Source: an uncultured bacterium
GTDB taxonomy: Bacteria; Babelota; Babeliae; Babelales; Babelaceae
DNA length: 64,000 bases
Direction: 5' to 3'
NCBI GenBank assembly: GCA_963713855.1
Contig: OY970209.1
Coordinates: 1,440,001 to 1,504,000 of the forward strand
Position numbers and translations under genes: made by a program. Every line of letters starts with the position of its first letter. Within the stretch, counting starts at the first letter, position 1. The notes beneath the pieces are model-generated. The model did no database searches. It had not been told where the DNA came from and saw only the letters and a program-made list of their open reading frames with translations. Below, piece after piece: positions 4,929-50,833 of this stretch.

Positions 4929-4939
4929 GCTCTATAGAT

Positions 4940-29887: not shown

Positions 29888-30160
29888 GATAGGTTTTACC
29901 AGACTATTCGAGATCAGACCATTGGCGTTAATATCCAGCTCGAGCAACTCCAAGAGGACCAAGATAATTATTACGTTACAGCAAAATGCCTTCTGGGTTT
30001 AGCTAATCGAGCATTTGAACTTTTTACAAGTTCTGAAATTGAAGAAAAGCGACAGGTTATGAAACTTGTACTATCGAACGTCGAGATGGCCGGAAAAGCG
30101 CTCTACGACGTTCAACCGCCATTTGATATGATCCTAAAATGTTCGGATCGTCAACTATGG
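29888..30160 (+). pseudogene. 3' remnant of the large serine recombinase (copy 1)
   Basis: Aligns to 56609-56884 (EDNYY.TAKCLLGLANRA...KCSDRQLW). Confidence 0.92.
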
Positions 30161-30192
30161 CGTACCTAAGAGACTTATTCAGGAACAGAGAA
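30132..30192 (+). repeat. R1: attP-like junction (recombinase arm + right arm)
   Basis: TCCTAAAATGTTCGGATCGTCAACTA-TG-GCGTACCTAAGAGACTTATTCAGGAACAGAGAA (one G missing). Confidence 0.88.
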
Positions 30193-30277
30193 ACAAACTA
30201 GACACATTTTCACGTGCTTTAAGAATAGCTACGTGAAACACTAACCAAAAATACCTGCTCTTTCAAAGCTTATGCTG

Positions 30278-30559
30278 CTACTTCATTTCTCTGAACATTT
30301 TTAAATGCTTATTTTCGTCATTCATAAACACTTTCAGTTGACTCATATTGTAGCCATATCGCTCAAAAAGACCTCGAAGCTCAAGCAAGTCTAGCTTGGG
30401 TATATTTTTTGATACGACATACACGTATACCTCTTTCCCAATTCCCTTACATCCTATTACAGATTTAATCTTTTTAAGCCACTCAAACATTGCATCTTCA
30501 TCATATTGAGGAGAATAAAAGGTGAGCGGAGTTAATATAAGAGTAACTTGATCATTCAT
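30278..30559 (-). CDS. Putative immunity protein for the upstream Ntox37-like toxin
   Basis: Directly downstream of the toxin; FYSPQYDEDAMFEWLKKI..LLELRGLFERY..MSQL. Confidence 0.75.
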   Translation of the reverse strand: MNDQVTLILTPLTFYSPQYDEDAMFEWLKKIKSVIGCKGIGKEVYVYVVSKNIPKLDLLELRGLFERYGYNMSQLKVFMNDENKHLKMFREMK

Positions 30560-30566
30560 AATTTTT

Positions 30567-31450
30567 CTATTTAGTAGGAGGTCTAGTTTTTCCGCCGGGA
30601 TAGATATTATTTACACGATCTCCATCGGGATTTACAATATCCAATGTGGACCGGCATGACCATAAGGACCGCTTGGTACCCAATAGTTGCCATCTTTATC
30701 TGGCCAACCATGCTGATCAGTTTCGGGATGAGGCTGCTTTTTCCCATCAGAATTTTTGGGAGGAATATATCCATCTTTTTCACCAGGCTTATCAGGAATG
30801 GAAAGGTCATAAAGACGGTTGAACTCTTCCTAATTTGCAGTTCTTCCTGATGCACCAAACAACTTTTTAAAAGCTCCATTTACAAAGAATTTTGAAGCTA
30901 TTCCACCTAAAGTAGCGAGAACTCCCATTCCTACGGCATTCCAGCCAACAAAAGCTAAACCTTGGCCTGCTCCCCATGCAAAAAGCGGTATTATATTATG
31001 CACTAATATATCTTCTCTTGATACACAGAAATTATGATACTCCTCTACGGTAAGATCATAAGCAATATCATGAGTAACTATTTCTAAGATATGACCAACT
31101 TTAACGAACTCTAAGCAATTTTTTAAAAGTGAATGGCCTACTTTGAGCTCTTCTGCTTTTACCCACTTTCCTTCTAAAGGGAGATAAAATATGTGATCAT
31201 CTGCTACAACTATTTCCTCGCCATTAACAACAACGCGAAAAAAACGTGAAGCTCCTTTATGTTCTATATGCGTAACACTTCTCTCAATACAAGAGCCCTT
31301 AAAATCAAAACAAATGACTTTATCACCTTCTTTAAGCTCTTCTATTGGTATGTAGCCATTTGAGACTTTAACTAAAGTTCCACTTAAAAACCCTTCTCCT
31401 CGAGCAACGTTTATCGCCAAGAAACATATAAGTATTAAGATTCTTTTCAT
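30567..31450 (-). pseudogene. Hint-domain polymorphic toxin with Ntox37-like C-terminus, disrupted
   Basis: Signal + Hint (GFLSGTLV...YDLTVEEYHNFCV..ILVHN). In-frame TAG at 30830-30832, then PGEKDGYIPPK..GWPDKDGNYWVP..GHAGPHW, a 1-nt frameshift near 30641, then DIVNPDG..NIYPGG. Confidence 0.85.
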
Positions 31451-31663
31451 GCTTTTTCTCTTTAGATATTTCTAACGTACAATCAAATCTGCTTCAGTGT
31501 AGAATGAACTTTAATAAAGTCAACGGTGTGTTTGCTTGCAAGACAGTTGCTGTTAACAAGAAAGAAAACATAAATCAGGGCTGCGGTTAGAAAATGATGA
31601 GCTTAAAATTATTGAGGTTTTTAAAGCGGCTTAAAAACCTCTACCAAGACAGTATAGATAATA

Positions 31664-31714
31664 CCAGCCTTTAAGTGCTGGCGGCACCTAAGCGACGCAT
31701 TCGGAAATAGAGAG
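31664..31714 (+). repeat. R2: hairpin + right arm
   Basis: CCAGC-ctttaagt-GCTGG CGGCACCTAAGCGACGCATTCGGAAATAGAGAG. Confidence 0.9.
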
Positions 31715-31763
31715 ATTAAACCAAACTTACTTTTTAAAATAGGAGATCTCTTTAATTTCTTAC

Positions 31764-32828
31764 TCAATAAGTAATGGCAATAGTTTTGTCTTTACAATTT
31801 ATATGCACCAGCCCACCATTAGGAACAACTATTTGCGGGTCTGTATGACCAAAATTCAGATTAAAAACAACAGGAAGATTAGCGTTGTAATCCTGCAAAG
31901 CTTGCTGAATTGCTTCTCTCTGATTTGTTACATAGTGCCCTCTACCTTCAGGCGGCAACATATGCATAAACTGCGTCTTTGGTAACCCAACTAAGATAGC
32001 TTTCAATCGCCTAAGTATGTTACGCTCAGCAAGTGCCGCAACAAAGCGATAAATAAATCCAGAACTTGGCAACTCTTCTGATGTCTCAATATATAAGACA
32101 ATATCATCATGCTTTTCAAATTGGGGAAGATAATAGGGACTATTTACAGCAAGCTGTAAGTCCAAAACTTCTAAACAGCCTCCCCATAACCTACCCGATA
32201 GTACGCTATCATCACAATTATACCATTCCCAATTCGGAGTCCTTTCCATAGGACGCTTAATGAAAAGTTTACTTGTGTCACTCCAATCAAAATCATAATC
32301 AGTATATTCCGCGGGCTTATTTATATAACCAACTTCAGTATCAAACAAAGCCTTTTTTATAGAATTAATAGTGTAATCATGCATAGCACCTTGCATACCA
32401 AATTGCGACATAAGTGCACCGCCATAGTAAGAAATTAAGCCAAGATTCCATAATAAAACATGTATATTGGTTATATCACTATACCCTAGAAATATCTTAG
32501 GGTGAGCTAAAATAATTTTGCGATCTAAATAAGGCAAAATTCGAATACAATCACTTCCACCAGTTGTAGCAATTATTGCTTTAATTGAAGCATCTTCAAA
32601 AGCTGTATTGATGTCATCAGCACGTGCTTCTGGATTACGCGACAAATATTCTGGGCTTTTACGAGTAGTAGGCAATTCTATGGGAATAAGATTGAAAATA
32701 GTCTGCAAACGCCGAATACCAAGTTCGTAGACTTGGGGAAATAAGTAAGCACATGCTGCTGATGGAGATACAATAGCGACTTTGTCACCAGGTTGTAAAC
32801 GTGATGGTATAATAAAAGAGGCACTCAT
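31764..32828 (-). CDS. S66 peptidase (LD-carboxypeptidase / MccF-like)
   Basis: GDKVAIVSPS, ARADDIN, TGGSD, GYSDIT, GGCLE, YIETSE, FGHTDP. Confidence 0.93.
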   Translation of the reverse strand: MSASFIIPSRLQPGDKVAIVSPSAACAYLFPQVYELGIRRLQTIFNLIPIELPTTRKSPEYLSRNPEARADDINTAFEDASIKAIIATTGGSDCIRILPYLDRKIILAHPKIFLGYSDITNIHVLLWNLGLISYYGGALMSQFGMQGAMHDYTINSIKKALFDTEVGYINKPAEYTDYDFDWSDTSKLFIKRPMERTPNWEWYNCDDSVLSGRLWGGCLEVLDLQLAVNSPYYLPQFEKHDDIVLYIETSEELPSSGFIYRFVAALAERNILRRLKAILVGLPKTQFMHMLPPEGRGHYVTNQREAIQQALQDYNANLPVVFNLNFGHTDPQIVVPNGGLVHINCKDKTIAITY

Positions 32829-32830
32829 AG

Positions 32831-33334
32831 TTACAACTTTCTATTTCTTACCTTTCTCTTAAGCTTACCACGTTCTTTTTCTATAATTTTCTGATCTTGG
32901 GCATACCAAAGCATTTCTTCGGTATTTTTAAGTTTGCGCAAAAGCAATATGTTATGACCCCAAGCGAATCTAAAGACAGGAAGATTTTCAAAAAGTGGCA
33001 CAGCTTGTGCTACTTTTTCGTAAGCTAAGAAAAAAGCCTTCATTCTAAATATATTACTTCTTGAAAACCCTTCTATTCCAGGAAAAGCATTTTGTAAATC
33101 TTTGACAAGACGCTCAATGATCTGAGACCCCCAATGGCTAATCTCTTGTTTCTCTGTTATTGTTTTGCCTAAAGAGTAATGGAGTTTGATTAACTCTTTG
33201 TTTCCCCAAACAGCTGCTTTAATCTGAGACTCATAGATTTGTCTCTTCAGCGCTAATAGTATCTTAGTATAATCTTTAGCTAGAGCGAGAGTCGGCTTAG
33301 ATGTAGTTTCGCTTTTTTTCTTTATGCTTTTCAT
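32831..33334 (-). CDS. DUF1016/YhcG N-terminal domain only (truncated)
   Basis: QIKAAV..NKELIKL, WGSQIIERL..DL, GFSRSNIFRMKAF, WGHNILL; no nuclease half. Confidence 0.8.
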   Translation of the reverse strand: MKSIKKKSETTSKPTLALAKDYTKILLALKRQIYESQIKAAVWGNKELIKLHYSLGKTITEKQEISHWGSQIIERLVKDLQNAFPGIEGFSRSNIFRMKAFFLAYEKVAQAVPLFENLPVFRFAWGHNILLLRKLKNTEEMLWYAQDQKIIEKERGKLKRKVRNRKL

Positions 33335-33458
33335 TGAGTTCTCTCTACATAGTTCTTTAGCAAAAGCGATTTTGCTGGTAATTTTATCTTTTAATAATAA
33401 ACAAAAAACTTCCTAGAAAGGTGATAACCGCTTTTGAATGGTCTTATCGTAATAGATC

Positions 33459-33793
33459 TTGCAATTACCGTCAAACCTGGATATACCCACTTTTGATCTA
33501 ATAATCACTTCTTAATGAAGGATAAGCCAACGACCGTACTACTAACATATAGCGCGTATGAGCGTCGAGGAAGTACGTTCAAATTTGGCTCGCATAACTT
33601 CAAAGATGCAGATGCTTCAGCATCAGCGTCGAGCTCCTTCAAGCAGTAAGCTCATTCCTAGCCTAATGGTCCGAATGTCAGCTTCCATTTTAAGCGTCAA
33701 AGCTTACACGAAGCTTTTTCAATACTTTAAGCAAATTACACAACACACGATCAGCATAACTCATATGGCAAGGGCCATGAGGAAAACTATGTT
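33459..33793 (+). ncRNA. Promoter + conserved structured leader/ncRNA, copy A
   Basis: TTGCAA-17-TATACC; homologous to 51849-52158 with a covarying stem. Confidence 0.6.
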
Positions 33794-34031
33794 TTTGATT
33801 TATTTTTGAGTTCTGACGTAGAAGAGAAGCGTCATATTATTAAACTTGAGAGTGGAAGCTGAGTATGTCCTCTATGACGTTCAACCGCCATTCGATGTGA
33901 TCCTAAAATGTTCGGATCGTCAACTATGGCGGTACCTAAGCAACGCATTCAGGAATCGAGAAGCAAGCTTAAGGCAGTTACCAGCCTCTTTAAAAACTCT
34001 TGATACATTTTGCAGACAAAATGTCCTTTAA
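33794..34031 (+). pseudogene. 3' remnant of the recombinase (copy 2) with its attP-encoded tail
   Basis: LFLSSDVEEKRHIIKL...LYDVQPPFDVILKCSDRQLWRYLSNAFRNREASL... Confidence 0.9.
33901..33962 (+). repeat. R3: intact attP-like junction
   Basis: TCCTAAAATGTTCGGATCGTCAACTA-TG-GCGGTACCTAAGCAACGCATTCAGGA; 26-bp arms symmetric about TG. Confidence 0.92.
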
Positions 34032-34078
34032 AAGCTTAATCTATTGACTTTTTTTCCAATTTATTGGACAATTGCTCT

Positions 34079-34399
34079 ATGAGAGTAGTACTTAAAAAAG
34101 TTTACAAGCTTTATAAAACTCCTGAATATGGTGCTTGGCTTGAACAACAGACTTTTAAGTCCCAAGTACAGATTGCTGATCGCCTCTCTAAAATAGAATT
34201 AGAGGGACATTTCGGTAATCATAAATTTCTTGAAAATAATATTTGGGAGTTAAAGTGGGAAAATGGCAGAAGAATTTACTATGCCTATATTAGCTCTTTA
34301 GATATTTTAGTTTTACTTGGGGGAAATAAGAATGGGCAGAACAAAGACATTACACAAGCAAAAAGAATCTACAGAAAAAATGTTGAAACAGAAGATTAA
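34079..34399 (+). CDS. RelE/HigB-like addiction-module toxin
   Basis: WL..QIADRL..GHFG, IWELKW..GRRIYY, LLGGNKNGQNKDI. Confidence 0.88.
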   Translation: MRVVLKKVYKLYKTPEYGAWLEQQTFKSQVQIADRLSKIELEGHFGNHKFLENNIWELKWENGRRIYYAYISSLDILVLLGGNKNGQNKDITQAKRIYRKNVETED

Positions 34400-34676
34400 A
34401 AAAAGTGCTCAATTAAAACCTTACAATCCAACTGAAGATCTTTTAGATGAGAATTTTATTGGTAAAGCAATTTTAGAGTGTTTAAAAAATAATGATCCTG
34501 AGGGTGTAATGGAAGTGCTTTCGGTATATTTAAAAACAGTTAATAAGGTTAAATCTGCCCAACAAGCAAATATTGCACGTTCAACACTTTATCATAGCAT
34601 CAAAAGCAAAAATCCTACCATCAAGACATTGGCTAAGCTTGTTTCAATTCATTCATTAGAGTTTCGCACAAAGTAA
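34380..34676 (+). CDS. HTH addiction-module antitoxin
   Basis: Overlaps toxin end; IARSTLYHSI..NPTIKTL. Confidence 0.85.
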   Translation: MLKQKIKKSAQLKPYNPTEDLLDENFIGKAILECLKNNDPEGVMEVLSVYLKTVNKVKSAQQANIARSTLYHSIKSKNPTIKTLAKLVSIHSLEFRTK

Positions 34677-35025
34677 GCTGTTGGCAAGAAATTCTGTTAA
34701 TCGTCTTATAAAGAATGGAAAGTGCACAAATTTTGAGTATATCGAGATAGCGGGGCAAATGTACTTAAGGTGCTTTGGATCGGGAGCATAGAGGTAATGA
34801 AATTATAGGCTAAGAGAAAGTTAGCACTGGGTATCTAAGCTCAAATAGAAGTTGAAGCTTATCGAGAGCCTTATCATTCGTCTTGCCGGTCGCATTCAGT
34901 GTAGCATATTGATTACCACGAATATGAAATGCTCCCTTACGATCTCTCTAAACCCTGAATCCTTTATTAGCAAGACTAGCACGAAATCTTGTATGATCAA
35001 GCATCGTTTGCTCCCCCTCAAAAGA

Positions 35026-35076
35026 CCAGCTGTAAAAAGCTGGCGTTACCTAAGCGATGCATTCAGGAATAAAGAA
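35026..35076 (+). repeat. R4: hairpin + right arm
   Basis: CCAGCT-gtaaaa-AGCTGG CGTTACCTAAGCGATGCATTCAGGAATAAAGAA. Confidence 0.9.
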
Positions 35077-35158
35077 GTTAGACTAGATTTACGCTATCAT
35101 GCTATTCACGTCTCGTTATATAGATTTGTTAAATAACTAATATTTTGAAGCAAAGCGA

Positions 35159-36400
35159 TTAAGCAAGCCGTTTCATGTTCCACACAGCATACGCTTTTTC
35201 AATTTGTTGGCGAATTTGTGATGGTGGAATAAAAAGATAAGCATAGTTTTTTACCACTTCACCAGACTGACAAATGCCTTTTTGTTCCCATGCGTTGATA
35301 AGAGTTGCAATGTTAAATTCATGTGCAATGAGAAAGCCTATTATATAAAGGGCTCTCTCAACATGCGACGGATGTCGATCGGATAAACCTATTGTAATAA
35401 TACTTGGCTTTTCGTCTTCTTCTTCAGAAAGAAGTATGGTTATAAAGTTTAGTATGGCACTCATTTCTCCTAACTTTAAAAGTTGTCTCAATGCGAAAAG
35501 GTCAGCTCGTTGCTCAGTTGTTCGCTCATATAACGACAGAAGCTTGTTCTTTTCGCCTTCGGGCGGGATCCAAAGGAAACCGTAACGCTTAAGCACTCTT
35601 TGAGCTTCTGGCTCGGCTAATGCTTCCACTAATATTTTTCCGATCTTTGTATGACCGAAAGAAGGGAGTGTATGTATGCCAAGCTCTAGATAATCTTTAA
35701 TATCTTTTTGGTCGGATTTTACTAAAGGCTCGTTTAGGAAGCCCTGCATATCAACATCTCGAGTATCTCCGTGAACAATATGTCCGATCTCATGATAGAG
35801 GGTATACAGTCGAGAATCCAAATCAGGTGTTTTACACATGATTATATAGCTCTTCAAAGGTTTAGTGACTGCTTCACCAGCAAAGGATTTGGTTGTACTA
35901 AGGGCCCTTACTTCTTCTTGAAGACCCGCCAAACGTACGCCTTCGTCAACCAGTTTTTTCTGCATCGCTGTTGGTATTTCAACACCTTTTTCTTTAATAA
36001 GCAAATCAAGCTCAACTTCAGTTATTACTTCCTTTAGCCATGTTCTATCTATCCCATATATTGAAGAAGCTGGTACTAGTCCAAGAAGCTCTCTTAAAAA
36101 ATTGTAAGGATATAATAATATGTTCGGCCTCACACTAAGGTTAGGCTGAACAAGTCCATAATTAGCTCGATAAGCAACATTTTCTAGCCAATCAAAAAAC
36201 GTCAAGTCAGATTTGTCCAACTCTTTTAACAGCTCTTGTTTCCAACTCTTGTAATCTTTTCCTTCCACAGTGGGTTTTTCATTATAAACAAAGCTTCCTT
36301 TGTCAAAATCCATTACAAGGGTTATTCCACGAGGTGTTTTGCCATAACTGACTACAGTGAAGGCAAAAGATAAAATAATCGCTTGCATGATTTTTTTCAC
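35159..36400 (-). CDS. Exported M48-like zinc metalloprotease with one YNxLRE repeat
   Basis: YHEIGHIVH, TEQRADLFA, RHPSHVERALY. Confidence 0.8.
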   Translation of the reverse strand: MKKIMQAIILSFAFTVVSYGKTPRGITLVMDFDKGSFVYNEKPTVEGKDYKSWKQELLKELDKSDLTFFDWLENVAYRANYGLVQPNLSVRPNILLYPYNFLRELLGLVPASSIYGIDRTWLKEVITEVELDLLIKEKGVEIPTAMQKKLVDEGVRLAGLQEEVRALSTTKSFAGEAVTKPLKSYIIMCKTPDLDSRLYTLYHEIGHIVHGDTRDVDMQGFLNEPLVKSDQKDIKDYLELGIHTLPSFGHTKIGKILVEALAEPEAQRVLKRYGFLWIPPEGEKNKLLSLYERTTEQRADLFALRQLLKLGEMSAILNFITILLSEEEDEKPSIITIGLSDRHPSHVERALYIIGFLIAHEFNIATLINAWEQKGICQSGEVVKNYAYLFIPPSQIRQQIEKAYAVWNMKRLA

Positions 36401-36976: not shown

Positions 36977-37032
36977 CCAACTACTTTTTAAAGAGCTGGC
37001 GGTACCTAATTGACGCCTTCAGGAATAGGCAA
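36977..37032 (+). repeat. R5: hairpin + right arm
   Basis: CCAACT-actttttaaag-AGCTGG CGGTACCTAATTGACGCCTTCAGGAATAGGCAA. Confidence 0.88.
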
Positions 37033-37161
37033 GTAAGGCTTTTGTATATTTAAGCTGACTTTTAGTTTTACTAAAGAGAAACTTTGCTAAAGCATACTAT
37101 TATGCTCTTTCTACAGTAAATTATTGACATGCTATACTACACAGTGGTATGGTATAAGCAC

Positions 37162-37822: not shown

Positions 37823-37907
37823 ATGACGAATTACTGCCACAGAACAGTTGATTTATCCTAATCTCTTTCTTTACTTATTCTTTAAAGAGCTATTAAAAGC
37901 ATTGTTT

Positions 37908-37961
37908 GCCAGCTTTATTAAGCATTGGCGGCACCTAAGCGACGCATTCAGTAAAAGAGAA
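37908..37961 (+). repeat. R6: hairpin + right arm
   Basis: GCCAGCTT-tatt-AAGCATTGGC GGCACCTAAGCGACGCATTCAGTAAAAGAGAA. Confidence 0.9.
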
Positions 37962-38099
37962 ATAAGAATAATCTCTGTAAGACCCAATAAACTCAAATAA
38001 AGCCTCTTTTTTACGTTAAAGAACAAATGGTTGACTTTGACTTAGCTTATTTTAGAATAAGCACAAAGTTGATTATGTATTAAAAGTGTATCAAAACTT

Positions 38100-39020
38100 A
38101 TGAAAAATCTTCTAGCTTTTATTTATTTTTTAGCAGCAGCCTGCGCTCATGGAGAAGGCTTCTTAGCAGGAACTTTAGTTAAAACTCCAAATGGCTACAC
38201 TCCTATAGAAAAACTGCAAGAGAAAGATTTAGTAATTTGCTATGACTTTCAGGGAAACTGTGTCACAAGAAGGATAACAAAGACTTTTAAGCAATCTACC
38301 TCTGATTATATCCGCTTGTGGATTAACGATGAGTTAATTGAAGTTGCTTCTGATCACAAATTTTTTCTACCTCTTGAAAATCGCTGGATCGAAGCGAAAT
38401 GCGCTAACTCTAAGCATGTTTTTTTGAGTAGATGTATCGATTTAGTTCTAATTACTGCTGCTCAATATCTGACAAAACAAGCAGAAGTTTACGACATTAC
38501 GGTAGAAGAGTTTCATAACTTTTGTGTTTCCAATCAAGATGTTCATGTGCACAATATATCACCTGTAGTAGCAATTGGTATCTCTTGGGCCTTTGAAGGA
38601 CCTATTGTCTGGACAGCTTCTATCGGACTTGCCGGCTTAGGATGGGGAATTGGATACTTGCTTTCAAGTAATCGTCATGCGAGACCGCAAACTCACTTTA
38701 ATGCCGACGAATTTGGACAAAGATTTAACAACAAAAAGCATCACGAAGAAAGCTATCACACAACAGCAGCTAGTGGAGGATCTTCTGATGACTTTGATGA
38801 TGAAGATCCTTATAAAGAAGAACAACACAAAAGCAAGCAAATGAAAAAGCTTTCCGAAGGAGAAATTAAAAAATTGGAAGCTGCTGGAATTGATGTGCAC
38901 ACGCTTAAGCCAAATTCAAAATTTGATCTTTTCAAGAATCAGGCCGGTGAAATTTTCGTAAAACCCAAAGCAGGCAATGGTCCTGGCGACTCAACAGGCT
39001 TTAACATCAATAATTTTTAA
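38100..39020 (+). CDS. Hint-domain polymorphic toxin with Ntox33-like C-terminus
   Basis: Signal + Hint (GFLAGTLV..VYDITVEEFHNFCV..VHVHN) + hydrophobic linker + GIDVHTLK..FDLFK..IFVKPK.G.GPG..TG. Confidence 0.85.
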   Translation: MKNLLAFIYFLAAACAHGEGFLAGTLVKTPNGYTPIEKLQEKDLVICYDFQGNCVTRRITKTFKQSTSDYIRLWINDELIEVASDHKFFLPLENRWIEAKCANSKHVFLSRCIDLVLITAAQYLTKQAEVYDITVEEFHNFCVSNQDVHVHNISPVVAIGISWAFEGPIVWTASIGLAGLGWGIGYLLSSNRHARPQTHFNADEFGQRFNNKKHHEESYHTTAASGGSSDDFDDEDPYKEEQHKSKQMKKLSEGEIKKLEAAGIDVHTLKPNSKFDLFKNQAGEIFVKPKAGNGPGDSTGFNINNF

Positions 39021-39023
39021 GCT

Positions 39024-39422
39024 ATGAAATACGAATACAAAACCCTTGTCCGTCTTAAAATTTTGAGCACGACTCTTAGCCCCGAACAAATCACCTATGA
39101 ATTAGGAGTTGCTTGTGAACAATCTTGGAAGATTGGTGATAATCGAGCATCGAGTATTATTAAAGAAACAACCAATGGGTGGGTTCTTGGTTCAGGGTTT
39201 TCTCAATCAACACCCCTGGAAGAACAACTTGAGCCTTTCCTTAACCGTTTAACTACCTATTCTGCTAAAATTCGTCGATTATCTGTACACAATATTGTTG
39301 AGCTTTCTTGCATTGTCTACGCTGTGGCCCCTCCTGCTCTCTATTTTAATAAGAACGTTATCTCATCCATTGCTAAACTCGGGGCAAATTTTGACATCGA
39401 TTTGTACATTTTAGCAAAATAG
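39024..39422 (+). CDS. DUF4279-type immunity protein
   Basis: PEQITYELGV..WKIGD, W.L.S, LGANFDIDLY; 3 nt after the toxin stop. Confidence 0.85.
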   Translation: MKYEYKTLVRLKILSTTLSPEQITYELGVACEQSWKIGDNRASSIIKETTNGWVLGSGFSQSTPLEEQLEPFLNRLTTYSAKIRRLSVHNIVELSCIVYAVAPPALYFNKNVISSIAKLGANFDIDLYILAK

Positions 39423-39803: not shown

Positions 39804-39951
39804 ATTTCTTACCCCTCATAATATGGTTGAATAAATAGCAAAATAGCCTTACCGCGTAGTTTACTTGGACGCAAGTTTCTATAAATTGCTAATCCAAAAG
39901 CAGAGATGGAAAGTGTCTTAATAAAAATTATTTAACTTTTGACTGAAAGAT

Positions 39952-40011
39952 GCCAGCTGAAAGCCTTTCGAAAGCTGGCGGTACCTAAGCGACGCATTCA
40001 GGAATAGGGAA
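39952..40011 (+). repeat. R7: hairpin + right arm (consensus copy)
   Basis: GCCAGCT-gaaagcctttcgaa-AGCTGGC GGTACCTAAGCGACGCATTCAGGAATAGGGAA. Confidence 0.93.
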
Positions 40012-40159
40012 ATTAAGTTTCATCTACAATATATTCAAAATTAACTTTTACCCTTCTAAAAGTTCTAAGCCGTTTAAGATCTTCTTTGCTTCATCCATTG
40101 AGGATAGATCATATATAGGATATATTAATAGTATAAGTGTTATATAAAGGAATAATCCT

Positions 40160-40766: not shown

Positions 40767-40796
40767 GAAAGGCTTTTTTAAGGCATAAGCTTCCAT

Positions 40797-40853
40797 GCCA
40801 GCTGCTTTAACGAAAGCTGGCGGTACTTAAGCGACGCATTCAGGAGCAAAGAA
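40797..40853 (+). repeat. R8: hairpin + right arm
   Basis: GCCAGCT-gctttaacgaa-AGCTGGC GGTACTTAAGCGACGCATTCAGGAGCAAAGAA. Confidence 0.92.
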
Positions 40854-40966
40854 ATTAGACTTAGGTTAAGTTTGAGCGATATAAAAGGGCTTTATTGCAA
40901 GCTGCGACGTTATGAACATCTATTCTTAGAAAGCAGAAAACTAGTTTGACCATCAATAATAATACA

Positions 40967-42091: not shown

Positions 42092-42129
42092 ATGTCTATT
42101 ATCAATTATCAAAACAGTGGAAATTAAAT

Positions 42130-42795: not shown

Positions 42796-42801
42796 TCTAT
42801 C

Positions 42802-44018
42802 GTGTCAAATTTTGCTGTTGATATACATGAATTATATAAATCATATGGGATTTTCATGTATTAAAAGGCGTTAACATGCACGTAGAGTCTGGTACAATCT
42901 TTGCGTTACTTGGCCCAAATGGGGCGGGAAAAACAACAATGCTGCGTATTTTAATGACACTTTTAAAGCCTGATTCAGGTTCTATCTTAATAAATGGTAT
43001 TGATACAATTAAACATCCAAATCAGGTTAAACAGGTAATAGGAATAGTTGGTCAGTGTGCATCAGTTGATGGCCAATTAACTGGTTTAGAAAATCTGCGA
43101 ATGATCGATAGGTTGCATCATTTAAGCATAGAAGAGGCTAATAATAATGCACATAGACCAACATCAGATGATGTATTTAAGACCCTGACAAAAGCAAATG
43201 GAAGGGTAATTATGACTGTGTATAGAAACTCTATCAAAAAATTAAGCTGGTTCTTAAGTGATGCATTTGTACTTGCTAAGCGAAATTTATTACATATATC
43301 ATGTGATCCTGATCAAATCTCTGGGTTACTCGTTTTACCAATTATGTACACCCTATTATTTCGTTATTTGTTTGGCGGAGCTATAGATAAGATGACATTC
43401 GCTGATGTGGGGACTGGAGATTATATTACTTATATTATGGCTCGGGCGTTTGTTATAAATATTTTATTTGCCTCAATAATCACCTGTGTAGGAGTTGCAA
43501 ATGATTTGACAAAGGGTGTTGTAGATCGCTTTCGCTCACTACCAATTAGCCCGTCATCGGTGATTTTGAGTTATCTTCTTGCCAGTGGTCAGTCAATGAT
43601 TATTATTGCAATAATGACTATTCTGGGACTCATTATGGGATTTCAGCCAACGACGATTCCAATCAAATGGTTAAGTGCTTTGGAAATGTTAGTACTTATG
43701 ACATTAGCAATCTCATGCCTTATGATATTGATTGGTGTATCATCTAAAAATGTTGAATCAGCACAACAATTTGGCGGTCTACTCGTTTTGTCATTATCAA
43801 TGATTAGCTCTGCTCTTGTTCCAACCCAGACAATGCCATCTTTTTTACGTATAATTGCACAAAATCAACCATTTACTCATGCAATTGAAGCAATACGTTC
43901 ATTGCTTTCTGGAACCGATATTGGTAATCATCTTTTTATGTCTTTGATCTGGTTTATAGGTATTATCATCATTACTTTCACCTTGAGCACATATTTATTT
44001 TCTAGCTCGAGTGAATGA
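42802..44018 (+). pseudogene. DrrAB-like ABC exporter: internally deleted ATPase running into ABC-2 permease
   Basis: Walker A GPNGAGKTT without signature or Walker B, jumping to the RPT..DDVF C-terminal motif; frameshift near 42850; six-TM permease follows. Confidence 0.78.
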
Positions 44019-44040
44019 GAACCGGATAAAGGGCTATGAA

Positions 44041-46356
44041 ATGTGGATATCAATACTAAAAAAAGATTTTCTCAAAAACAAAGGCATCACTTCAGCATTA
44101 GTCATTTTCATCTCAGTATCAGCATTACTTATTGCTTGTGGAACAAGCATGATCTCTGAATTATATAATTCTTTAAACTACCTATTTGCTAAATCTAATG
44201 TTCCTCATTTTCTTGTAAAGCATTCTGGAAAAATCAATCAAGCAGAGATTGAGCAGTGGTCATTGAATAATAGTCTAGTAAAGAACGAACAGACAACTGA
44301 GATGCTTAGTATCGATAGATCAAACATTTATTTAGGCTATAGCAACAGGTCTGAGTATGATAGCGTAATGAACATTGATTTTGTTAAGCAGAATTCTTCT
44401 ATGGATATACTGCTTAACAAAAAAGGGCAAGTCATTCGGTTATCAAAAGGGGAAGTTGCAGTTCCACTCTATTATATGCAATTAAAAAACATGAAAATTG
44501 GCGACAGGGTTAGAGTTGCCAATAAAGATTTTGATATGAGTTTTACTGTTGTTGATTTCGTTCGAGATGCTTTGATGAACCCATCATTAGTGCATTCAAA
44601 GCGCTTCGTAGTAAATGATGATGATTTTGAAATCCTTAAAAAGAATATTGGAGAAATTGAATACTTTATCGAATTTCGCCTTGCTGATATAAGTAAGCTA
44701 AATGAATTTAGAAATGCATATCAGGCATCCAATTTGCCCCAAAATGGACCAATGCTTGATTTTAACTTGATAAAACTTTTAAATGCTTTATCAGATGGTC
44801 TTGTGGCTGCAATAATATTGCTGATAAGTATATTGCTTACTATTATTGCTGTTCTTTGCTTTAGATTTACTATTCTTACGACTCTCCAAGAGGATTATAA
44901 AGAAATTGGCGTAATGAAAGCAATTGGCATTTTGCAACAGGATATCCAAAGAATATATCTGGCCAAATATATCTTAATAGCTGCTATAGGTACAGTGCTT
45001 GGATATTTGGCCTCTTTATTTTTTAATCAGCTGTTTATGGAGAATATCATTATCTATTTAGGGATTGCGCCAAAAACTATTTTAAACCACGTAAGTCCTT
45101 TGATTGCAGTTATCATAATATTCTTGATAATAATATCCTCTTGTGGGGTGGTACTTCGAAAAATAAATAAAATATCACCCATAGAAGCCTTGCGTGGTGG
45201 AATTATCGGGGAAGCACAGAAACTCAAAAGTAATATGTCTCTGTACAAGAATAGATTATTACCTGTTGATATTTTTCTGGGAGCACAAGATGTATATCAA
45301 CGATTAAGAAGCTATATGGTTTTACTCCTAATTTTTTTCTTTTGCTCATTTATGATCATTGTTCCTATAAATTTTCTTAATACTATTAAATCGCCTAATT
45401 TTATTACATACATGGGGATAGGCCGTTGTGATATCAGAATAGATTTGCAACGGACAGATAACATTCCTGAAAGATTTAATAATCTGATTACATATCTCAA
45501 AAATGACCCGGATGTTGCACAGTTTTCCCCGTTAGTTACCAGTCGGATTAAGACGATAAATGATGGTGTCCAGCAAAATATTAATGTTGAAACAGGGAAT
45601 TTTTCGGGATTTCCACTAGAGTATTTGGCAGGCTCAGCTCCAAAGCATATTAATGAAATTGCTCTTTCCGTTCTTAACAGTAAAGAATTTAGAAAGCACG
45701 TTGGAGATAGCTTGCGATTAATAATCGATAAACAAGAAAAAAACATGAAGATTACCGGTATTTATCAGGATATAACTAATGGTGGGCTAACAGCAAAAGC
45801 GGTATTGCCATTTAATCATGAAACAGCGTTATGGTATATAATTAACGTAAATGTAAAACAGGGCGTTAACGTACAAAAAAAAATTGATGAGTATGCAAAA
45901 ATTGCTAATCCAGCCAGGATTAGTGACTTGGCAAAATATCTATCTCAAACCTTAGGGAATACTATCAACCAATTAACGCTTTTCACAATCTCTGCTATCC
46001 TCATCGCCCTGTTTATTTCACTATTAATTACCTATTTATTTCTAAAATTGATACTTGCAAATGAATCCTCTCAAATAGCTATTATGAGAGCTATTGGTTT
46101 TACATTAAACGATATTCGACTGCAATATGTAACGAGAGTATTGCTAGTGCTTGTCCTTGGAATAATTTTCGGGACAATTATTGCTAACACAGTTGGTCAA
46201 AGCATAATTAATTTATTGTGGTCATTTTTAGGTGCTTCGAAGGTTAAATTCGTTGTATTTCCTATACAGACTTATGTTATTATCCCTCTCGTAGTAATGT
46301 TTGTTGTAGCTATTACTGCATTAATGAGCATGTTGTCCATACATAAAGCTAAATAA
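44041..46356 (+). CDS. FtsX/MacB-like ABC permease
   Basis: Two FtsX halves: EDYKEIGVMKAIG and ESSQIAIMRAIGF. Confidence 0.9.
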   Translation: MWISILKKDFLKNKGITSALVIFISVSALLIACGTSMISELYNSLNYLFAKSNVPHFLVKHSGKINQAEIEQWSLNNSLVKNEQTTEMLSIDRSNIYLGYSNRSEYDSVMNIDFVKQNSSMDILLNKKGQVIRLSKGEVAVPLYYMQLKNMKIGDRVRVANKDFDMSFTVVDFVRDALMNPSLVHSKRFVVNDDDFEILKKNIGEIEYFIEFRLADISKLNEFRNAYQASNLPQNGPMLDFNLIKLLNALSDGLVAAIILLISILLTIIAVLCFRFTILTTLQEDYKEIGVMKAIGILQQDIQRIYLAKYILIAAIGTVLGYLASLFFNQLFMENIIIYLGIAPKTILNHVSPLIAVIIIFLIIISSCGVVLRKINKISPIEALRGGIIGEAQKLKSNMSLYKNRLLPVDIFLGAQDVYQRLRSYMVLLLIFFFCSFMIIVPINFLNTIKSPNFITYMGIGRCDIRIDLQRTDNIPERFNNLITYLKNDPDVAQFSPLVTSRIKTINDGVQQNINVETGNFSGFPLEYLAGSAPKHINEIALSVLNSKEFRKHVGDSLRLIIDKQEKNMKITGIYQDITNGGLTAKAVLPFNHETALWYIINVNVKQGVNVQKKIDEYAKIANPARISDLAKYLSQTLGNTINQLTLFTISAILIALFISLLITYLFLKLILANESSQIAIMRAIGFTLNDIRLQYVTRVLLVLVLGIIFGTIIANTVGQSIINLLWSFLGASKVKFVVFPIQTYVIIPLVVMFVVAITALMSMLSIHKAK

Positions 46357-46389
46357 TTGAAGTAATTCAGGAGTAATAGGATAATTTTT

Positions 46390-47154
46390 ATGGAAAACAT
46401 ATTAGAAGCTAAAGCATTAAATAAATCTTACATTATAAATAACAAACACTATGACGTCCTCAAAGATATAAATTTGTACATTAAAAAAGGTGAATTTATA
46501 TCGGTGATGGGTCGCTCTGGTTCTGGAAAATCTACATTACTTTACACAGTCAGTGGCATGGATAGAATGACATCCGGCAGCGTAATCTTTAATGGGCAAG
46601 ATCTATCACGGCTTGCAGAAAAAGAACTTTCTAAGATACGCCTTAATAAAATGGGATTTATATTTCAGCAGTTTAATCTTTTAAAAAATCTTTCTATTTT
46701 TGATAATATTATCCTTACAGCTTACTTGAGGCGAAAAGTAAATCGCACAGAGATTAATAACCGCGCTCTTGAATTGATGAAAAAAACAGGTATTGAAGAA
46801 CTTGCCGATAATGACATTACCCAGGCTTCAGGTGGTCAGCTACAACGAGTAGGAATTTGTCGGGCTCTTATCAATAATCCTGAGATTATTTTTGCAGACG
46901 AACCTACGGGGGCGTTGAATTCAACGGCTGCAGATGGAATCATGGAAATTTTAACCGAGATCAACTCGTCTGGGACGACAATTTTATTGGTGACACATGA
47001 TCTTAAAGTCGCATCGAAAACAGAGCGAGTTCTTTTTGTGTTGGACGGCAACATTGTTGCCGAACAAAAGCTTGGCAAATACATAAAAGAAAATATTGAT
47101 GTTAAAGTGAGAGAAGAAAAACTATCAAAATGGTTAATAGAACTGGGCTTTTAA
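46390..47154 (+). CDS. LolD-like ABC ATPase
   Basis: GRSGSGKST, SGGQLQRV, FADEPTGALN, VTHD. Confidence 0.95.
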   Translation: MENILEAKALNKSYIINNKHYDVLKDINLYIKKGEFISVMGRSGSGKSTLLYTVSGMDRMTSGSVIFNGQDLSRLAEKELSKIRLNKMGFIFQQFNLLKNLSIFDNIILTAYLRRKVNRTEINNRALELMKKTGIEELADNDITQASGGQLQRVGICRALINNPEIIFADEPTGALNSTAADGIMEILTEINSSGTTILLVTHDLKVASKTERVLFVLDGNIVAEQKLGKYIKENIDVKVREEKLSKWLIELGF

Positions 47155-47289
47155 TGTGGCTTAAAAACATTGAGATTTCTTATTTTTCATAAAAATAAGA
47201 AGGATTTTGTTATTCTTATGTAACTTATGGAGATAGCGTGGTTCATCGCAAATTACAGCCTATTTTGCCCACGGGATACGAGCTCCGTG

Positions 47290-47828
47290 ATGAAGCTCAT
47301 AGTAATATACGATTCTTGCGTTCTTTATCCAGCACCATTGAGGGATCTTCTTATGCGCCTTGCACTTACGGACCTTTATCAGGCAAAGTGGACCCACAAG
47401 ATTCATGAAGAATGGATTTATAACCTTTTAAAAAAGCGCCCTGATCTAACGGAAGAACGACAAAAGAAAACATGAACCTGTACGTTAGAGATTGTCTAGT
47501 TAGAAGGCTATGAGAAATTAATCGATAAGCTAACATTACCTGATCCATGCGATCGGCACATTTTAGCCGCAGCCATCGATACGAAAGCGCATTTAATTAT
47601 CACTTTTAATCTGCGAGACTGTTCCCCTTAATATTACGGCTCATTATGGGGTCCAAGCGATATATCCTGATGTGTTTCTTGCATCCTTGCTAAGTAAAGA
47701 TATAGATACAGTTATCCAAACAATGCGAGAAACAAGGCTCAGTTTAAAGAAGACAGCAAAAAATCCTGAATACTTAGCTACTTCCTAAAACTGTTGCTTA
47801 TGTGCGCAAATACATAAACTTCATTTAA
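47290..47828 (+). pseudogene. PIN-domain toxin, multiple frameshifts
   Basis: YDSCVLYPAPLRDLLMRLA..W...IHEEW; later frames give LVxGYE, LPDP.DRHILAAAI, IITFNLRD, PDVFL. Confidence 0.82.
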
Positions 47829-47880
47829 TGACGCAATGCCTTAATAGGATAATATTGCATAATCAGGCTCGCTAAATGAT

Positions 47881-47934
47881 GCCAGTTCATTAAGGTGGTG
47901 GCGGTACCTAGTTGACGCATTCAGGAATGAAAAA
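47881..47934 (+). repeat. R9: hairpin + right arm
   Basis: GCCA-gttcattaaggtgg-TGGC GGTACCTAGTTGACGCATTCAGGAATGAAAAA. Confidence 0.88.
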
Positions 47935-48008
47935 GTACGCTTACCTATTTTTCATAAACACAACACAATAGGCAAAAATATTTTATTTAGCATAGTTTCT
48001 AAACAAAC

Positions 48009-50285
48009 TTAACGCCCCAACCAATATCCTAGCTTTGTAATGATTTTGTATACCTTACTTAGAGATGACATGCTTTCTCTGTAAAGAGATTCTTGCTGAC
48101 GAATCCACTTAAAATCAAGCTGTTTTAATGACCATATATGAGGGCTTTTTGCAGTCTCATCTAGAAGTAGATTATAGCAACAAAGAGCTTCTTGCTCATG
48201 ATAGTTTGATAACGTGCTAGAAACTTCTTGTGCTTCAAATTCATCAAGGTGAAAGTTAAGCTGCTTAATTAATTCCCTTATTGTAAGCATAGTAATATGA
48301 GTATCATTATAATATTCATACCAGGCTGCATAATAAGTTTCCTGCATCCAAAGAAAATTAATCTCGGCAAAGGAAACTGCTGGAGATTGACCCAAAAGCT
48401 CTCTAAGCAGATTGTAATTATAAAGAGCTTGTAATTCATAATCAGCAGGCTTAGAGATAACACGCTCCATTTCGCGTTGAGCAATATAGTAAAAGTGCTT
48501 TATAGATGAAAAAAGCATATTTACTTGCGCGTAAAGAGTTGTTAATCCCTCTCTCTGCCAGCTGGCCTCAACATGCATTTTCCACTGTTTGAAAGATTCT
48601 GTTGTTGCATCTTGTTGCCATATTTGCTGCGCTTTTGAAAAAACTTCATTATTGACAGCATCTTTAGATGATGCAGCAAAAGCGATGCTTGGTTTGTGTG
48701 CTTGAATGTCTTTCTTTGAATACCATTCATCAAATGCTTGATTAATATCTAGACCCTTATCCACCAAGAAACCTATCATATAGAGTGCTCTCTCAAAGTT
48801 TGAAGGATGCTCATCTTCATTGCCATACGCAGTGATATAATTTGATAAAGCATAAAGTTCAATAGTTGCTAAAATAGGATCTAACTTGCCAAGCTTCAGA
48901 AGCTTATCACATGCAAAGAGGTCTGCTTGCTGCTCATACTCTCGCGCAAGAGTTGTTTTCTTGTATTCGTAATCATTCAGAGGAAGCACCCATAATGGCA
49001 ACATACTTGATACTATACTGTTAATAGTTTTTCCCAAGCGTGTTTTATTGGTAAAAGCTTTTTTTCCTATATTGATAAATTTGCTAATCTTCTCTCTCCC
49101 TTGGATAAAATCATCGCTGGATAGCAGTAAATCAATTTCTTCTAGAGAAATAGTGTTATTCCGCATTTCAGGAGTTTTATCATGCTTAAGCATGATGTGT
49201 CCGAGTTCATGGTAAAATACTTTATATTGGTGATTATGCTCATTCGCCAATCCTAAAACAATATAAAAGTTTATTCCATTACCATAGGCATTTGTTCCGC
49301 CTTTCCCTTTACGTACAGCTAAAACAATACTATCATCTAGATGAAATGCTTCTCGTGCTTCTGTCAAAATATTTTCTAAAATATCTGGTGCTAATTCATA
49401 ATGATATTTTTCAAGAAATTCGTTAAGTAAAGCTTCTTTTCTTATACTTTCAATCCAAGGGTAATCTATTTCGGTAATGGTTTTAGCATTGTCCAAATGT
49501 AACATTTCTCGCAACAAATTATAGCAATAAAGAAATCTCTTTTTAAAAAAAAGATTGTTTGAATCCGCTCTAAATTCTTTTAAAGCATTTTCTATTTTTA
49601 TTAAAATATCAACTATCTTGCAAGCAAATGACTCTATTTTTCTTTTTTTCCACTCCTGCTTGATTTCGTCATTCCATGTTACATAGACATGATCGTAAAG
49701 CCAATCGCTATCTATAGTGCTTAAAAAAGTTCGACCAAGCGGAAATTCACTTAGTTCGTTTAGAAGATTATAATTAAAAAGAGCTTGTCGTTTATGGGCA
49801 CCTATGGGTTCATTATTAGAGTTTAAAAAATGATTAAGTGACGTTACCAATTTGTTTTTTTGCTCTTTTTTAGTATCTATCCCTTGTTTTTCCCATATCT
49901 GTTTTTTCTCTTCTTTCCATAGAGGGTATACACAGTCATTAATCCACGTATCATCTATTTGATCTAAGGTGTGTATTAAAGGAAAAGATAAACTTTCTCT
50001 TAAGAAGTTGTATGTTACTAGCACCGCTCCTTGATAAAAGCTATTATTAAGATTTTGCCGTAGAGCGCTTAAATCGTGATCAAAGCGGTAAATCAAGTCC
50101 AGAATACGGTCTTCAGGTGGCTGCTTTGACCAAAAATACTCTAGAGCTTGTTTCCAGTCACTGTAAGAAAATTTTGATGTCTCTGTATATGGTATTGTGT
50201 TTTCTGCTTTTAAGAAAGAGGGTAACGTATATAAGCCAATGGAAAACAAAAGCGCTATTCCAACTATAAATTCCTTATAATTCAC
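48009..50285 (-). CDS. Exported M48-like zinc metalloprotease flanked by five YNxLRE repeats
   Basis: YHELGHIML, YEQQADLFA, EHPSNFERALY; paralog of 35159-36400. Confidence 0.82.
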   Translation of the reverse strand: MNYKEFIVGIALLFSIGLYTLPSFLKAENTIPYTETSKFSYSDWKQALEYFWSKQPPEDRILDLIYRFDHDLSALRQNLNNSFYQGAVLVTYNFLRESLSFPLIHTLDQIDDTWINDCVYPLWKEEKKQIWEKQGIDTKKEQKNKLVTSLNHFLNSNNEPIGAHKRQALFNYNLLNELSEFPLGRTFLSTIDSDWLYDHVYVTWNDEIKQEWKKRKIESFACKIVDILIKIENALKEFRADSNNLFFKKRFLYCYNLLREMLHLDNAKTITEIDYPWIESIRKEALLNEFLEKYHYELAPDILENILTEAREAFHLDDSIVLAVRKGKGGTNAYGNGINFYIVLGLANEHNHQYKVFYHELGHIMLKHDKTPEMRNNTISLEEIDLLLSSDDFIQGREKISKFINIGKKAFTNKTRLGKTINSIVSSMLPLWVLPLNDYEYKKTTLAREYEQQADLFACDKLLKLGKLDPILATIELYALSNYITAYGNEDEHPSNFERALYMIGFLVDKGLDINQAFDEWYSKKDIQAHKPSIAFAASSKDAVNNEVFSKAQQIWQQDATTESFKQWKMHVEASWQREGLTTLYAQVNMLFSSIKHFYYIAQREMERVISKPADYELQALYNYNLLRELLGQSPAVSFAEINFLWMQETYYAAWYEYYNDTHITMLTIRELIKQLNFHLDEFEAQEVSSTLSNYHEQEALCCYNLLLDETAKSPHIWSLKQLDFKWIRQQESLYRESMSSLSKVYKIITKLGYWLGR

Positions 50286-50431
50286 TTTTTATCTCCATAA
50301 AGAATTACATTCTTTATTATACCATCAAAAATAAAAACCTGGAATCAAGAATTAGCAAAGCTTTTGTCAATCTATACACTGGAGTTTCATACACAATAAT
50401 TTGAACTCGTAATTTAAGGATAAATCCTAAT

Positions 50432-50476
50432 ACAGCTTGATCTTAAGAACTGGCAGTACAAGGCGACGCTATTCAG
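50432..50476 (+). repeat. R10: degenerate copy
   Basis: ACAGC-ttgatcttaaga-ACTGG CAGTACAAGGCGACGCTATTCAG. Confidence 0.6.
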
Positions 50477-50678
50477 TTTTCTTTAGCGCTTTGAGATTTA
50501 TGTAATCATGTATTAATGTTTCAGTTAATTTCTGCTTTTTATATAAGCAATATTCAAGGCTATCTGCAATTGTTGACAATATATTACTTAGGCATCCAAG
50601 CTCGCTTTCTATGCTTGCTTCACGATAATATAAGTATATCCCATGACGATTTTTGATTATTTCTACAGGTTCGTTCAT
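50469..50678 (-). CDS. Small hypothetical protein (69 aa), sole content of a 270-bp cassette
   Basis: ATG at 50678 with AGAGGAG RBS; lies between R10 and R11. Confidence 0.55.
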   Translation of the reverse strand: MNEPVEIIKNRHGIYLYYREASIESELGCLSNILSTIADSLEYCLYKKQKLTETLIHDYINLKALKKTE

Positions 50679-50703
50679 TAACTTGCTCCTCTTATTTAGC
50701 AAT

Positions 50704-50756
50704 GCCAGCCTTTTAAGCGCTAGCGGCATCTGGTTGACGCATTCAGGAACAGAGTG
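50704..50756 (+). repeat. R11: hairpin + right arm; left end of the recombinase-bearing element (TG mutated to TA)
   Basis: GCCAGC-cttttaagc-GCTAGC GGCATCTGGTTGACGCATTCAGGAACAGAGTG. Confidence 0.85.
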
Positions 50757-50833
50757 ATTGAGCCAGAATTACAAAAGGCACCATTTCTCATACATTAGAT
50801 TGCTGATGCTCAACTTAAATTTAAGACTTAATA

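Follow-up and report, generated by a model that had tools for sequence, protein, structure and literature searches.

The question raised by this locus is why a row of direct repeats near a tRNA gene should read like the C-terminal end of a recombinase. The window (the whole stretch of 64,000 nucleotides that was analysed, from contig OY970209.1 of an uncultured bacterium of the Babelaceae) carries ten such repeats, and beyond them a large serine recombinase (LSR) gene that runs into the antisense strand of tRNA-Asp. In the initial annotation the repeats were regarded as a library of interchangeable C-termini for this recombinase. Our analysis leads to a different answer: the region between 29.9 and 56.9 kb is probably a fossil accretion array, comparable to the staphylococcal cassette chromosome (SCC), which was built at the 3' end of tRNA-Asp by an LSR of the Babeliales type having its attachment site (attP) inside its own gene.

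The recombinase gene, its tRNA junction and the ten repeats

The recombinase was classified from the pieces of its gene. The N-terminal catalytic domain (Resolvase, PF00239, E 2.3e-18) is located on 55436-55894, and the Recombinase (PF07508, E 3e-8) and Zn_ribbon_recom (PF13408, E 3.7e-8) domains on 56010-56450; since these three domains are found together, the enzyme is an LSR and not a tyrosine recombinase. In the AlphaFold2 (AF2) model of a 33%-identical relative, long helices are seen at 339-443, which may correspond to a coiled-coil insertion in the zinc-ribbon domain. The gene is broken by frameshifts at about 55873 and about 56414 and by an in-frame TGA at 56738-56740. When the genome was searched by tblastn with four LSR pieces no other LSR was found, only two 3' fragments (29885-30160 and about 33830-33932), which directly precede the repeats R1 and R3; the one before R1 is 95% identical to 33870-33931 (DNA repeat D6). 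No recombination directionality factor was identified, no systematic search for candidates having been made.

The LSR gene reads toward tRNA-Asp and across the core TGGCGG, which is the antisense of the ..CCGCCA end of the tRNA. In the integrated state its open reading frame (ORF) enters the tRNA antisense and stops at WRG*: the C-terminus is ..KCSDRQLWRG*, as first annotated, and the gene's final nine bases (TGGCGGGGC) match the 3' end of tRNA-Asp read in antisense.

Ten repeat copies were found between 30157 and 50765 when the whole genome of 1,521,901 bases was searched with the consensus arm (fuzzy search) and with an nhmmer profile of the copies. All of them are direct, lie on the + strand, are confined to the window and have nhmmer E values of 1.7e-12 to 1.5e-18. 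In the repeat-family listing nine copies belong to family D1 and the tenth (50721) to D3; another D1 member, at 28061, was rejected as a spurious copy of 61% only. The earlier numbering had run up to R11, and its R10, the would-be eleventh copy, was not found by a relaxed search.

Every repeat is composed of a left arm, the 6-nt core TGGCGG and a right arm (P'); one G of the core is missing in R1, and TAG replaces TGG in R11. Translated from TGG in the recombinase frame, the right arms read WR[YH]L[SVI]DAFRN..., in letter-for-letter agreement with the translations given before, and they extend over 18-43 aa from W to stop (14 in R1 if the lost G is counted). The left arm is a hairpin similar to a tRNA trailer in eight repeats and a recombinase 3' fragment in two, R1 and R3, where the right arm continues the LSR fragment in frame. 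These in-frame P-O-P' junctions, P being the recombinase 3' end and O the core, confirm the proposal that the crossover site lies inside the recombinase ORF. TGGCGG is the sole stretch common to the P-O-P', hairpin-O-P' and P-O-B' junctions, B' being the tRNA arm. Because the left flank alternates between LSR 3' end and hairpin, and the right flank between P' arm and tRNA, the exchange point is placed inside these six nucleotides.

The hairpin left arm has the form GCCAG(C)...(G)CTGGC, with its right half overlapping the core, and it is flush with the core in 8/10 junctions. Six of the eight hairpin arms fold together with the core, and five have z values of -1.65 to -3.2. A longer TGGC..GCCA form of the hairpin precedes 9/29 foreign sites, and in 7 of the 29 tRNA-Asp loci shown, including that of the same-genus genome G001, the hairpin was seen by eye to abut tRNA-Asp directly. 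We read it as a B-type (bacterial-side) arm, since the same hairpin occurs natively just downstream of tRNA genes. The eight hairpin junctions are accordingly read as attL-type (B-O-P'), R1 and R3 as P-O-P', and the tRNA junction as attR (P-O-B'). The native hairpin in the tRNA-Asn/tRNA-Asp spacer (TGGCTTGCCA...GGCGTAGTA followed by TGGC) pairs with the antisense of the tRNA-Asn 3' end, and similar trailer hairpins are present after tRNA-Gln in the source genome and after many tRNA-Asp genes of relatives; natively, the spacer hairpin could terminate transcription, signal processing or serve as a landing pad.

The C-terminal tail in the Babeliales

In other genera of the Babeliales (Dependentiae) the free-standing arms encode a peptide of 31-32 aa, W-R-x-L-[VI]-D-x-F-R-N-x-x-I-E-F-x-F-[ST]-L-x-x-I-Q-x-[IV]-F-x-x-L-x-I, and in the attP configuration the LSR ORF runs on into the P' arm, encoding this family tail. 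A search with the tail alignment recovered it in 51 of 151 genomes of the order; nearly all matches were in open frames of 23-120 codons, and only one (534 codons) was joined to a full recombinase. A natural full-length tailed LSR of 522 aa (L111/P0121, one chromosome), in which the frame goes straight into the tail, demonstrates that the right arms are homologues of a true C-terminal coding end, as had been claimed. The AF2 model of this enzyme (48-row alignment, 2 rows with the tail) has a mean pLDDT of 79, falling below 50 at residues 487-522, so that no confident structure results for the tail, and there is no sign in it of the tail docking. At the same locus (L111, G165:C1, 2960-9914) the tailed LSR has as neighbours a gene resembling primases (Toprim, CHC2 zinc finger) and one for a DUF5906/D5-like NTPase, and it is faced by a second LSR gene, which ends before W; the element is plasmid- or satellite-like. 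A kinship of the tail with the enzyme's own coiled-coil base was considered and rejected: MAFFT twice aligned free tails to internal segments, L-I-D-M-Y-L-D-G-R-I-D (L-I-D-x-Y-x-D-G-x-I) and F-R-D-Q..I-R-L-x-x-L-Q, and the tail hidden Markov model gave E 0.4-5, which is not significant.

The claim that integration swaps the C-terminal end for tRNA-antisense residues (WRG*) held well beyond the window. The LSR C-terminus was found in 22/61 relatives. Where the upstream frame was intact over 400 aa or more (14 loci), it invariably closed with W followed by residues read from the tRNA antisense, and in the three loci checked (L058, L077, L078) tRNA-Asp adjoins directly. Among the best 120 of 585 database homologues, 76 end at most three residues after W and 27 have DSN-type tRNA-antisense tails, so that 103/120 are integrated and tail-less; the remaining ends comprise nine tails of the W-x5-[LF]-R-[TN]-F type, five others and three which could not be placed. 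By the names attached to database homologues, the organism belongs to Candidatus Dependentiae/Babeliales. Tails of this W-x5-[LF]-R-[TN]-F type also occur in 4/37 cases of a second LSR subfamily. The crossover is thus inside the integrase ORF and integration alters the C-terminus; with attP inside the LSR gene, the enzyme therefore has the tail when encoded by the excised form and lacks it when encoded by the integrated form.

The family tail evolves like coding sequence. For 29 foreign tails, the three codon positions (1/2/3) have entropies of 33.8/22.4/42.8, and the in-frame pN/pS of 0.475 compares with 0.91 and 1.51 out of frame. For the distal part (nt 31-93) of ten sites that were gathered via a DNA motif of the proximal part alone, pN/pS is 0.66 versus 0.97 and 1.17, and 8/10 are stop-free in frame versus 3/10 and 0/10.

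Rows of tails are not confined to the window. At least two tails on one strand within 10 kb were found in 16 other genomes, where most copies match the proximal tail part only. The clearest case of this kind is G039, in which an intact 496-aa frame next to tRNA-Asp is accompanied by six P' sites at intervals of 0.7-0.85 kb; these sites hardly differ over the first 33 nt or so and bear no relation to each other beyond. The source genome itself contains a second island outside the window (G000:C1:351893-351985 and ~354843-354935), 4.3 kb from tRNA-Glu (356169-356246) and without an LSR; one of its tails is an intact 31-aa peptide (WRRIIDMFRNGEVDFDFTSNAIQTVLSTLHIE*) right after a housekeeping-looking gene, the other is frameshifted and decayed. 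The units of the tRNA-Glu island consist of an 850-aa ORF and small ORFs. In the array of another genome (L113, G139:C7) a hairpin-like module of about 30 nt (GCTGCCTGTGCGCCATAGCTTTATG..GGC) was observed inside the P' arm in three copies (4857-4950, 6873-6966, 12541-12634), placed between ..TTGAC and the F-R-N codons.

The proposed serial entry and the competing explanations

In the reading that we favour, the units would have entered serially at the tRNA-proximal junction, the newest being the one beside tRNA-Asp. Three of them (U0, U2, U10) would have brought an LSR, and seven would be LSR-less cassettes of 0.8-7 kb, mobilised in trans, with toxin-antitoxin, polymorphic-toxin/immunity, peptidase and ABC transporter genes as cargo. 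The hairpin end of each LSR-less cassette would restore an attB-like site for the next entry, and a row of hairpin-O-P' junctions closing in P-O-B' would be the outcome of such tRNA-proximal entry. A comparison with G001 gives some indication of age: its LSR is broken, the TAG variant recurs there in an R11-like site, the units stand in a different order, and a homologue of the gene at 26467-27224, which is left of the array in the window, sits there between the LSR and tRNA-Asp. On the grounds of the shared TAG junction and the displaced gene, part of the array should predate the G001 split, with the units rearranged since; for unit-by-unit dating the G001 synteny was too rearranged to permit a clean comparison.

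Several points weigh against this history. Junction pairs that serial entry needs are reported as disallowed for phage large serine integrases (Rutherford et al. 2013, PMC3783163). Judged by the junctions, entry at P-O-B'/hairpin-O-B' and circles with hairpin-O-P' would not be canonical, the canonical phage LSRs recombining only attP with attB. The hairpin arm could be a terminator or another feature of the cassettes instead of a B-type recombinase arm. Dyad symmetry of the window sites reaches at best 13-14 of 28 matches, and the shuffled mean is 12.8; as this is not above shuffled, the half-sites were assigned from position and conservation and not from symmetry. Only if the LSR 3' end is set against an arm of the R9/G039 type does an inverted repeat of 8 nt appear (GTCAACTA/TAGTTGAC, 10-nt spacer), whose centre would fall on the last two G of the core. 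The searches brought up no closer strain in which a single cassette has been gained or lost; a pattern scan of metagenome contigs gave 0 matches, and the scan of genome contigs gave two sites, both in other genomes. Furthermore, the selection test on the 29 foreign tails is biased, because these tails were collected with a protein model, and the count of 16 other arrays was made by hand from one table.

The best surviving competitor, to which we nevertheless concede only a small chance, supposes ten once-complete recombinase elements in tandem, whose LSR genes were deleted later, so that there never were LSR-less cassettes. LSR remains are still present in three units, and tandem accretion with decay has been described for tycheposons at tRNA genes (10.1101/2020.12.28.424599). 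Random deletions, however, would not re-create similar hairpins flush with the core in eight of ten junctions. The units of 0.84-1.1 kb (R4-R3, R6-R5, R8-R7) and the G039 units (0.7-0.85 kb) are moreover shorter than the 1.46-kb gene, and no LSR fragments were detected by tblastn in those short units.

That the repeats are a maintained library of alternative tails, tuning the directionality, activity or stability of the recombinase, is quite improbable. It is formally correct, as was pointed out initially, that the ORF would be joined again to tail i whenever a junction R_i and the tRNA junction took part in an excision; R1 and R3 display such in-frame fusions, the family tail is under coding constraint, and 5/10 window arms are open through codon 31. 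The state of the window arms speaks against it. They are well conserved over the first 30 nt or so and moderately up to about nt 45, after which conservation is lost, so that what is conserved are the first 10-15 codons or so, roughly one attP half-site. A foreign tail model, built without window sequences, matches seven arms over positions 1-12 to 1-25 (14-24 bits) and three of the ten not at all, and with the same model singleton tails elsewhere reach 40-69 bits over positions 1-31. The distal pattern persists in R8 and R4 only, and more weakly in R2 and R3; near-identical proximal DNA to that of R9 bears a full tail in another genome. Beyond codon 15 the frame stays open for 3-28 codons (mean 15, median 16), against a median of 11 and P(>=16) = 0.41 for starts drawn at random from the same region, which puts the arm lengths at chance. 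The tails therefore differ mainly by decay, R1 being frameshifted and R11 beginning with a stop.

Nor could the statement that the variation is largely synonymous be upheld. Over 48 nt and ten copies, at least 18/13/21 changes are required at codon positions 1/2/3, and 97 differing codon pairs are synonymous in frame versus 85 and 44 in the other frames, a weak trend that is not significant (hand chi-square, p about 0.4). In addition, the only LSR of the genome is dead, direct repeats would lead to deletion or excision and not to switching in place or inversion, and conservation of the proximal part alone recurs in the G039 array and in most copies of the 16 other genomes. As far as the sequence tells, the window arms are decayed copies and the system is extinct in this genome, its LSR being a pseudogene. 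Under serial entry, the first 30 nt or so of the right arm would have been kept mainly as the P' half-site, its peptide look being inherited from double duty as coding sequence; since the conserved extent is close to the 25 bp or so from the crossover which we take to be the size of an attP half-site, the proximal conservation probably reflects mainly a DNA-binding constraint.

It is scarcely credible that the repeats are displaced tRNA 3' fragments or some other RNA element with a coincidental peptide reading: the core is indeed the tRNA CCA-end antisense, and right arm and tRNA arm have a CTAA(G/C)(C)GA motif after the core in common, but ARAGORN and Rfam give three true tRNAs only and no repeat match at E <= 0.1, the arms extend LSR fragments in frame at R1 and R3 and are homologous to the tail on the full LSR of L111, and the recombinase is a serine and not a tyrosine enzyme.

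Units of the array, known systems and significance

The genes of the array lie on both strands; the mapped features and the proposed units are collected in Table 1. The gene of U10 at 52643-53760 has an intact 385-aa relative with a weak match to a phage replication-protein family (phrog_702, E 1.1e-4). A stretch of 160 nt, 78-82% identical, is common to U2 (33450-33607) and U10 (51840-51996; repeats D4, D8), as would be expected if both elements had the same backbone and U2 had lost part of it. Two genes, at 30830-31450 and 38100-39422, resemble polymorphic toxins, each having a PT-HINT domain and an N-terminus like a signal peptide; one of the two has Ntox33 at its end and a DUF4279 gene, probably for immunity, behind it, and the other is without a toxin tip. 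Three paralogous-looking secreted proteins are encoded at 26472-27245, 35159-36400 and 48009-50285, the first two with weak M48-peptidase motifs, the last two having DNA repeat D9 in common. Within the TetR-ABC cassette an ORF (42876-44018) joins the N-terminal part of an ABC ATPase (residues 2-92) to an ABC-2 permease, and looks like a fusion or deletion product.

Table 1. Mapped features of the array, from left to right, followed by the contents of its proposed units (core start, first base of the repeat core).
Feature	Position	Strand	Core start	Evidence and remarks
3' fragment of older LSR gene (unit U0), ends ..KCSDRQL; P arm of R1	29885..30160	+		tblastn with LSR C-terminal pieces, 72-84% identity
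R1: core (one G lost) + P' arm; P-O-P' junction	30158..30202	+	30157/8	fuzzy search, profile, translation
R2: hairpin left arm + TGGCGG + P' arm, attL type	31655..31723	+	31679	fuzzy search, profile, translation, folding
3' fragment of second older LSR gene (unit U2); P arm of R3	33796..33932	+		D6 repeat, tblastn
R3: core + P' arm, in frame with LSR fragment (..KCSDRQLWRYLSNAFRNRE..); P-O-P'	33927..33971	+	33927	fuzzy search, translation
R4: hairpin arm + core TGGCGT + P' arm	35017..35085	+	35041	fuzzy search, translation, folding
R5: degenerate hairpin arm + core + P' arm	36977..37041	+	36997	fuzzy search, translation, folding
R6: hairpin arm + core + P' arm	37907..37970	+	37926	fuzzy search, translation, folding
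R7: hairpin arm + core + P' arm; consensus copy	39950..40020	+	39976	fuzzy search, translation, folding
R8: hairpin arm + core + P' arm; longest tail (43 codons), best residual family-tail match	40795..40862	+	40818	
R9: hairpin arm + core + P' arm, TAGTTGAC variant	47879..47943	+	47899	fuzzy search, translation
R11: hairpin arm + TAGCGG + P' arm; attL of the last, LSR-bearing unit U10	50702..50765	+	50721	
Frameshifted U10 gene, conserved in LSR-bearing relatives	52643..53760	+		
HigB/HigA-like toxin-antitoxin pair of U10	53787..54415	+		Gp49 E 3.4e-6; dnstrm_HI1420 E 1.4e-15
LSR pseudogene, ends WRG*	55436..56892	+		Pfam domains on pieces
tRNA-Asp(GTC); 3' end ..CCGCCA gives core + B' arm (attR = P-O-B')	56882..56958	-		
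Native trailer hairpin in tRNA-Asn/tRNA-Asp spacer (42 nt), same type as left arms	56959..57000	-		-7.3 kcal/mol
Unit U0				LSR remnant
Unit U1				PT-HINT fragment
Unit U2				LD-carboxypeptidase, DUF1016, LSR remnant
Unit U3				HigB/HigA
Unit U4				M48-like protein
Unit U5				HTH antitoxin
Unit U6				PT-HINT/Ntox33 toxin with DUF4279 neighbour
Unit U7				PIN
Unit U8				TetR and ABC transporter genes
Unit U9				758-aa protein
Unit U10				rep-like gene, HigB/HigA, DUF7674, LSR

In SCC elements the CcrAB or CcrC LSRs act at a single site, in the 3' end of the conserved gene rlmH, recombinase-less cassettes and direct att repeats are found, and defence and toxin genes are carried. The window is similar in having an LSR with recombinase-less cassettes in a row, direct att repeats and one chromosomal site. 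The composite SCC/SCCmec islands of staphylococci are described as LSR-driven tandem units which are mobilised together (PMC11470126, PMC13739063). By analogy, the SCC composite island would be the nearest known system in working principle. The differences are that the target here is a tRNA CCA end and not rlmH, that the crossover takes place inside the recombinase's own ORF and not in that of the target, that there is one recombinase and no CcrA/CcrB pair, and that the host belongs to the Dependentiae.

An intragenic attP is known from Myxococcus phage Mx8 (IntP/IntX), which has a tyrosine integrase. In archaeal integrases of the SSV type the attachment site is likewise reported within the integrase ORF, and integration alters or splits the enzyme (PMC7253208). 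Mx8 and SSV thus resemble the present case in having the attachment site inside the recombinase's own ORF; theirs are tyrosine recombinases with long identity segments, whereas here a serine enzyme uses a 6-nt core and its last 31 or so residues are exchanged. As far as we found, precedents for an intragenic attP exist only among tyrosine integrases, and literature searches outside the subscription journals returned neither LSR arrays of Dependentiae nor an LSR whose own gene contains attP. The phage large serine integrases (phiC31, Bxb1, A118/LI) are similar in their Resolvase and Recombinase domains and zinc ribbon, possibly, to judge by the relative's model, in long coiled-coil helices, and in their short sites with a small common core, and they differ in that attP here is intragenic.

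Tandem accretion at one tRNA, degraded recombinase remains and repeated junctions are features shared with tycheposons, for which serial integrations at one tRNA are reported to push older elements inward, leaving degraded integrases and repeated junctions; the recombinase is a tyrosine enzyme in 910/937 of them, and partial tRNAs form their junction repeats (10.1101/2020.12.28.424599). In the window, by contrast, the junction repeat is the recombinase's own coding end. Integrons also have rows of small cassettes rich in toxin-antitoxin genes; unlike in integrons, the LSR is the sole recombinase here, IntI and attC are absent, and the genes stand on both strands. Shufflons choose alternative C-termini by site-specific recombination, in contrast to the window, which has no Rci and no sfx sites, with 10/10 repeats direct and the tails decayed.

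In the integration-dependent immunity of mycobacteriophages attP lies in the repressor gene, and integration removes a C-terminal degradation tag. There, too, a C-terminal end is exchanged by integration, and as a stability switch it is the nearest precedent for the idea of a switch; the gene concerned is a repressor gene, the integrase is a tyrosine enzyme, and no end resembling a degradation tag is evident in the Babeliales tails. We tentatively suggest, as a possibility which we hold to be less probable than not, that the tail of the Babeliales LSR might be a built-in state sensor, the tailed (excised) and the tail-less (integrated) enzyme differing in direction, activity or stability. If so, it would replace or supplement a separate directionality factor, and one enzyme could excise variable blocks of cassettes, each attL-type junction bearing a usable proximal tail. 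The family-wide tail swap, of which the literature searches returned no earlier account, is a simple candidate for directionality control in serine integrases, enzymes which are much used in genome engineering.

The window itself is a fossil, and its 'library' of tails is a by-product. Its array is a fossil member of an apparently undescribed SCC-like, tRNA-anchored LSR cassette system with intragenic attP. The Dependentiae are poorly known intracellular bacteria with small genomes, and this locus and its relatives point to a possible route by which they may gather toxin-antitoxin, polymorphic-toxin and transporter genes, via SCC-like rows at tRNA genes.

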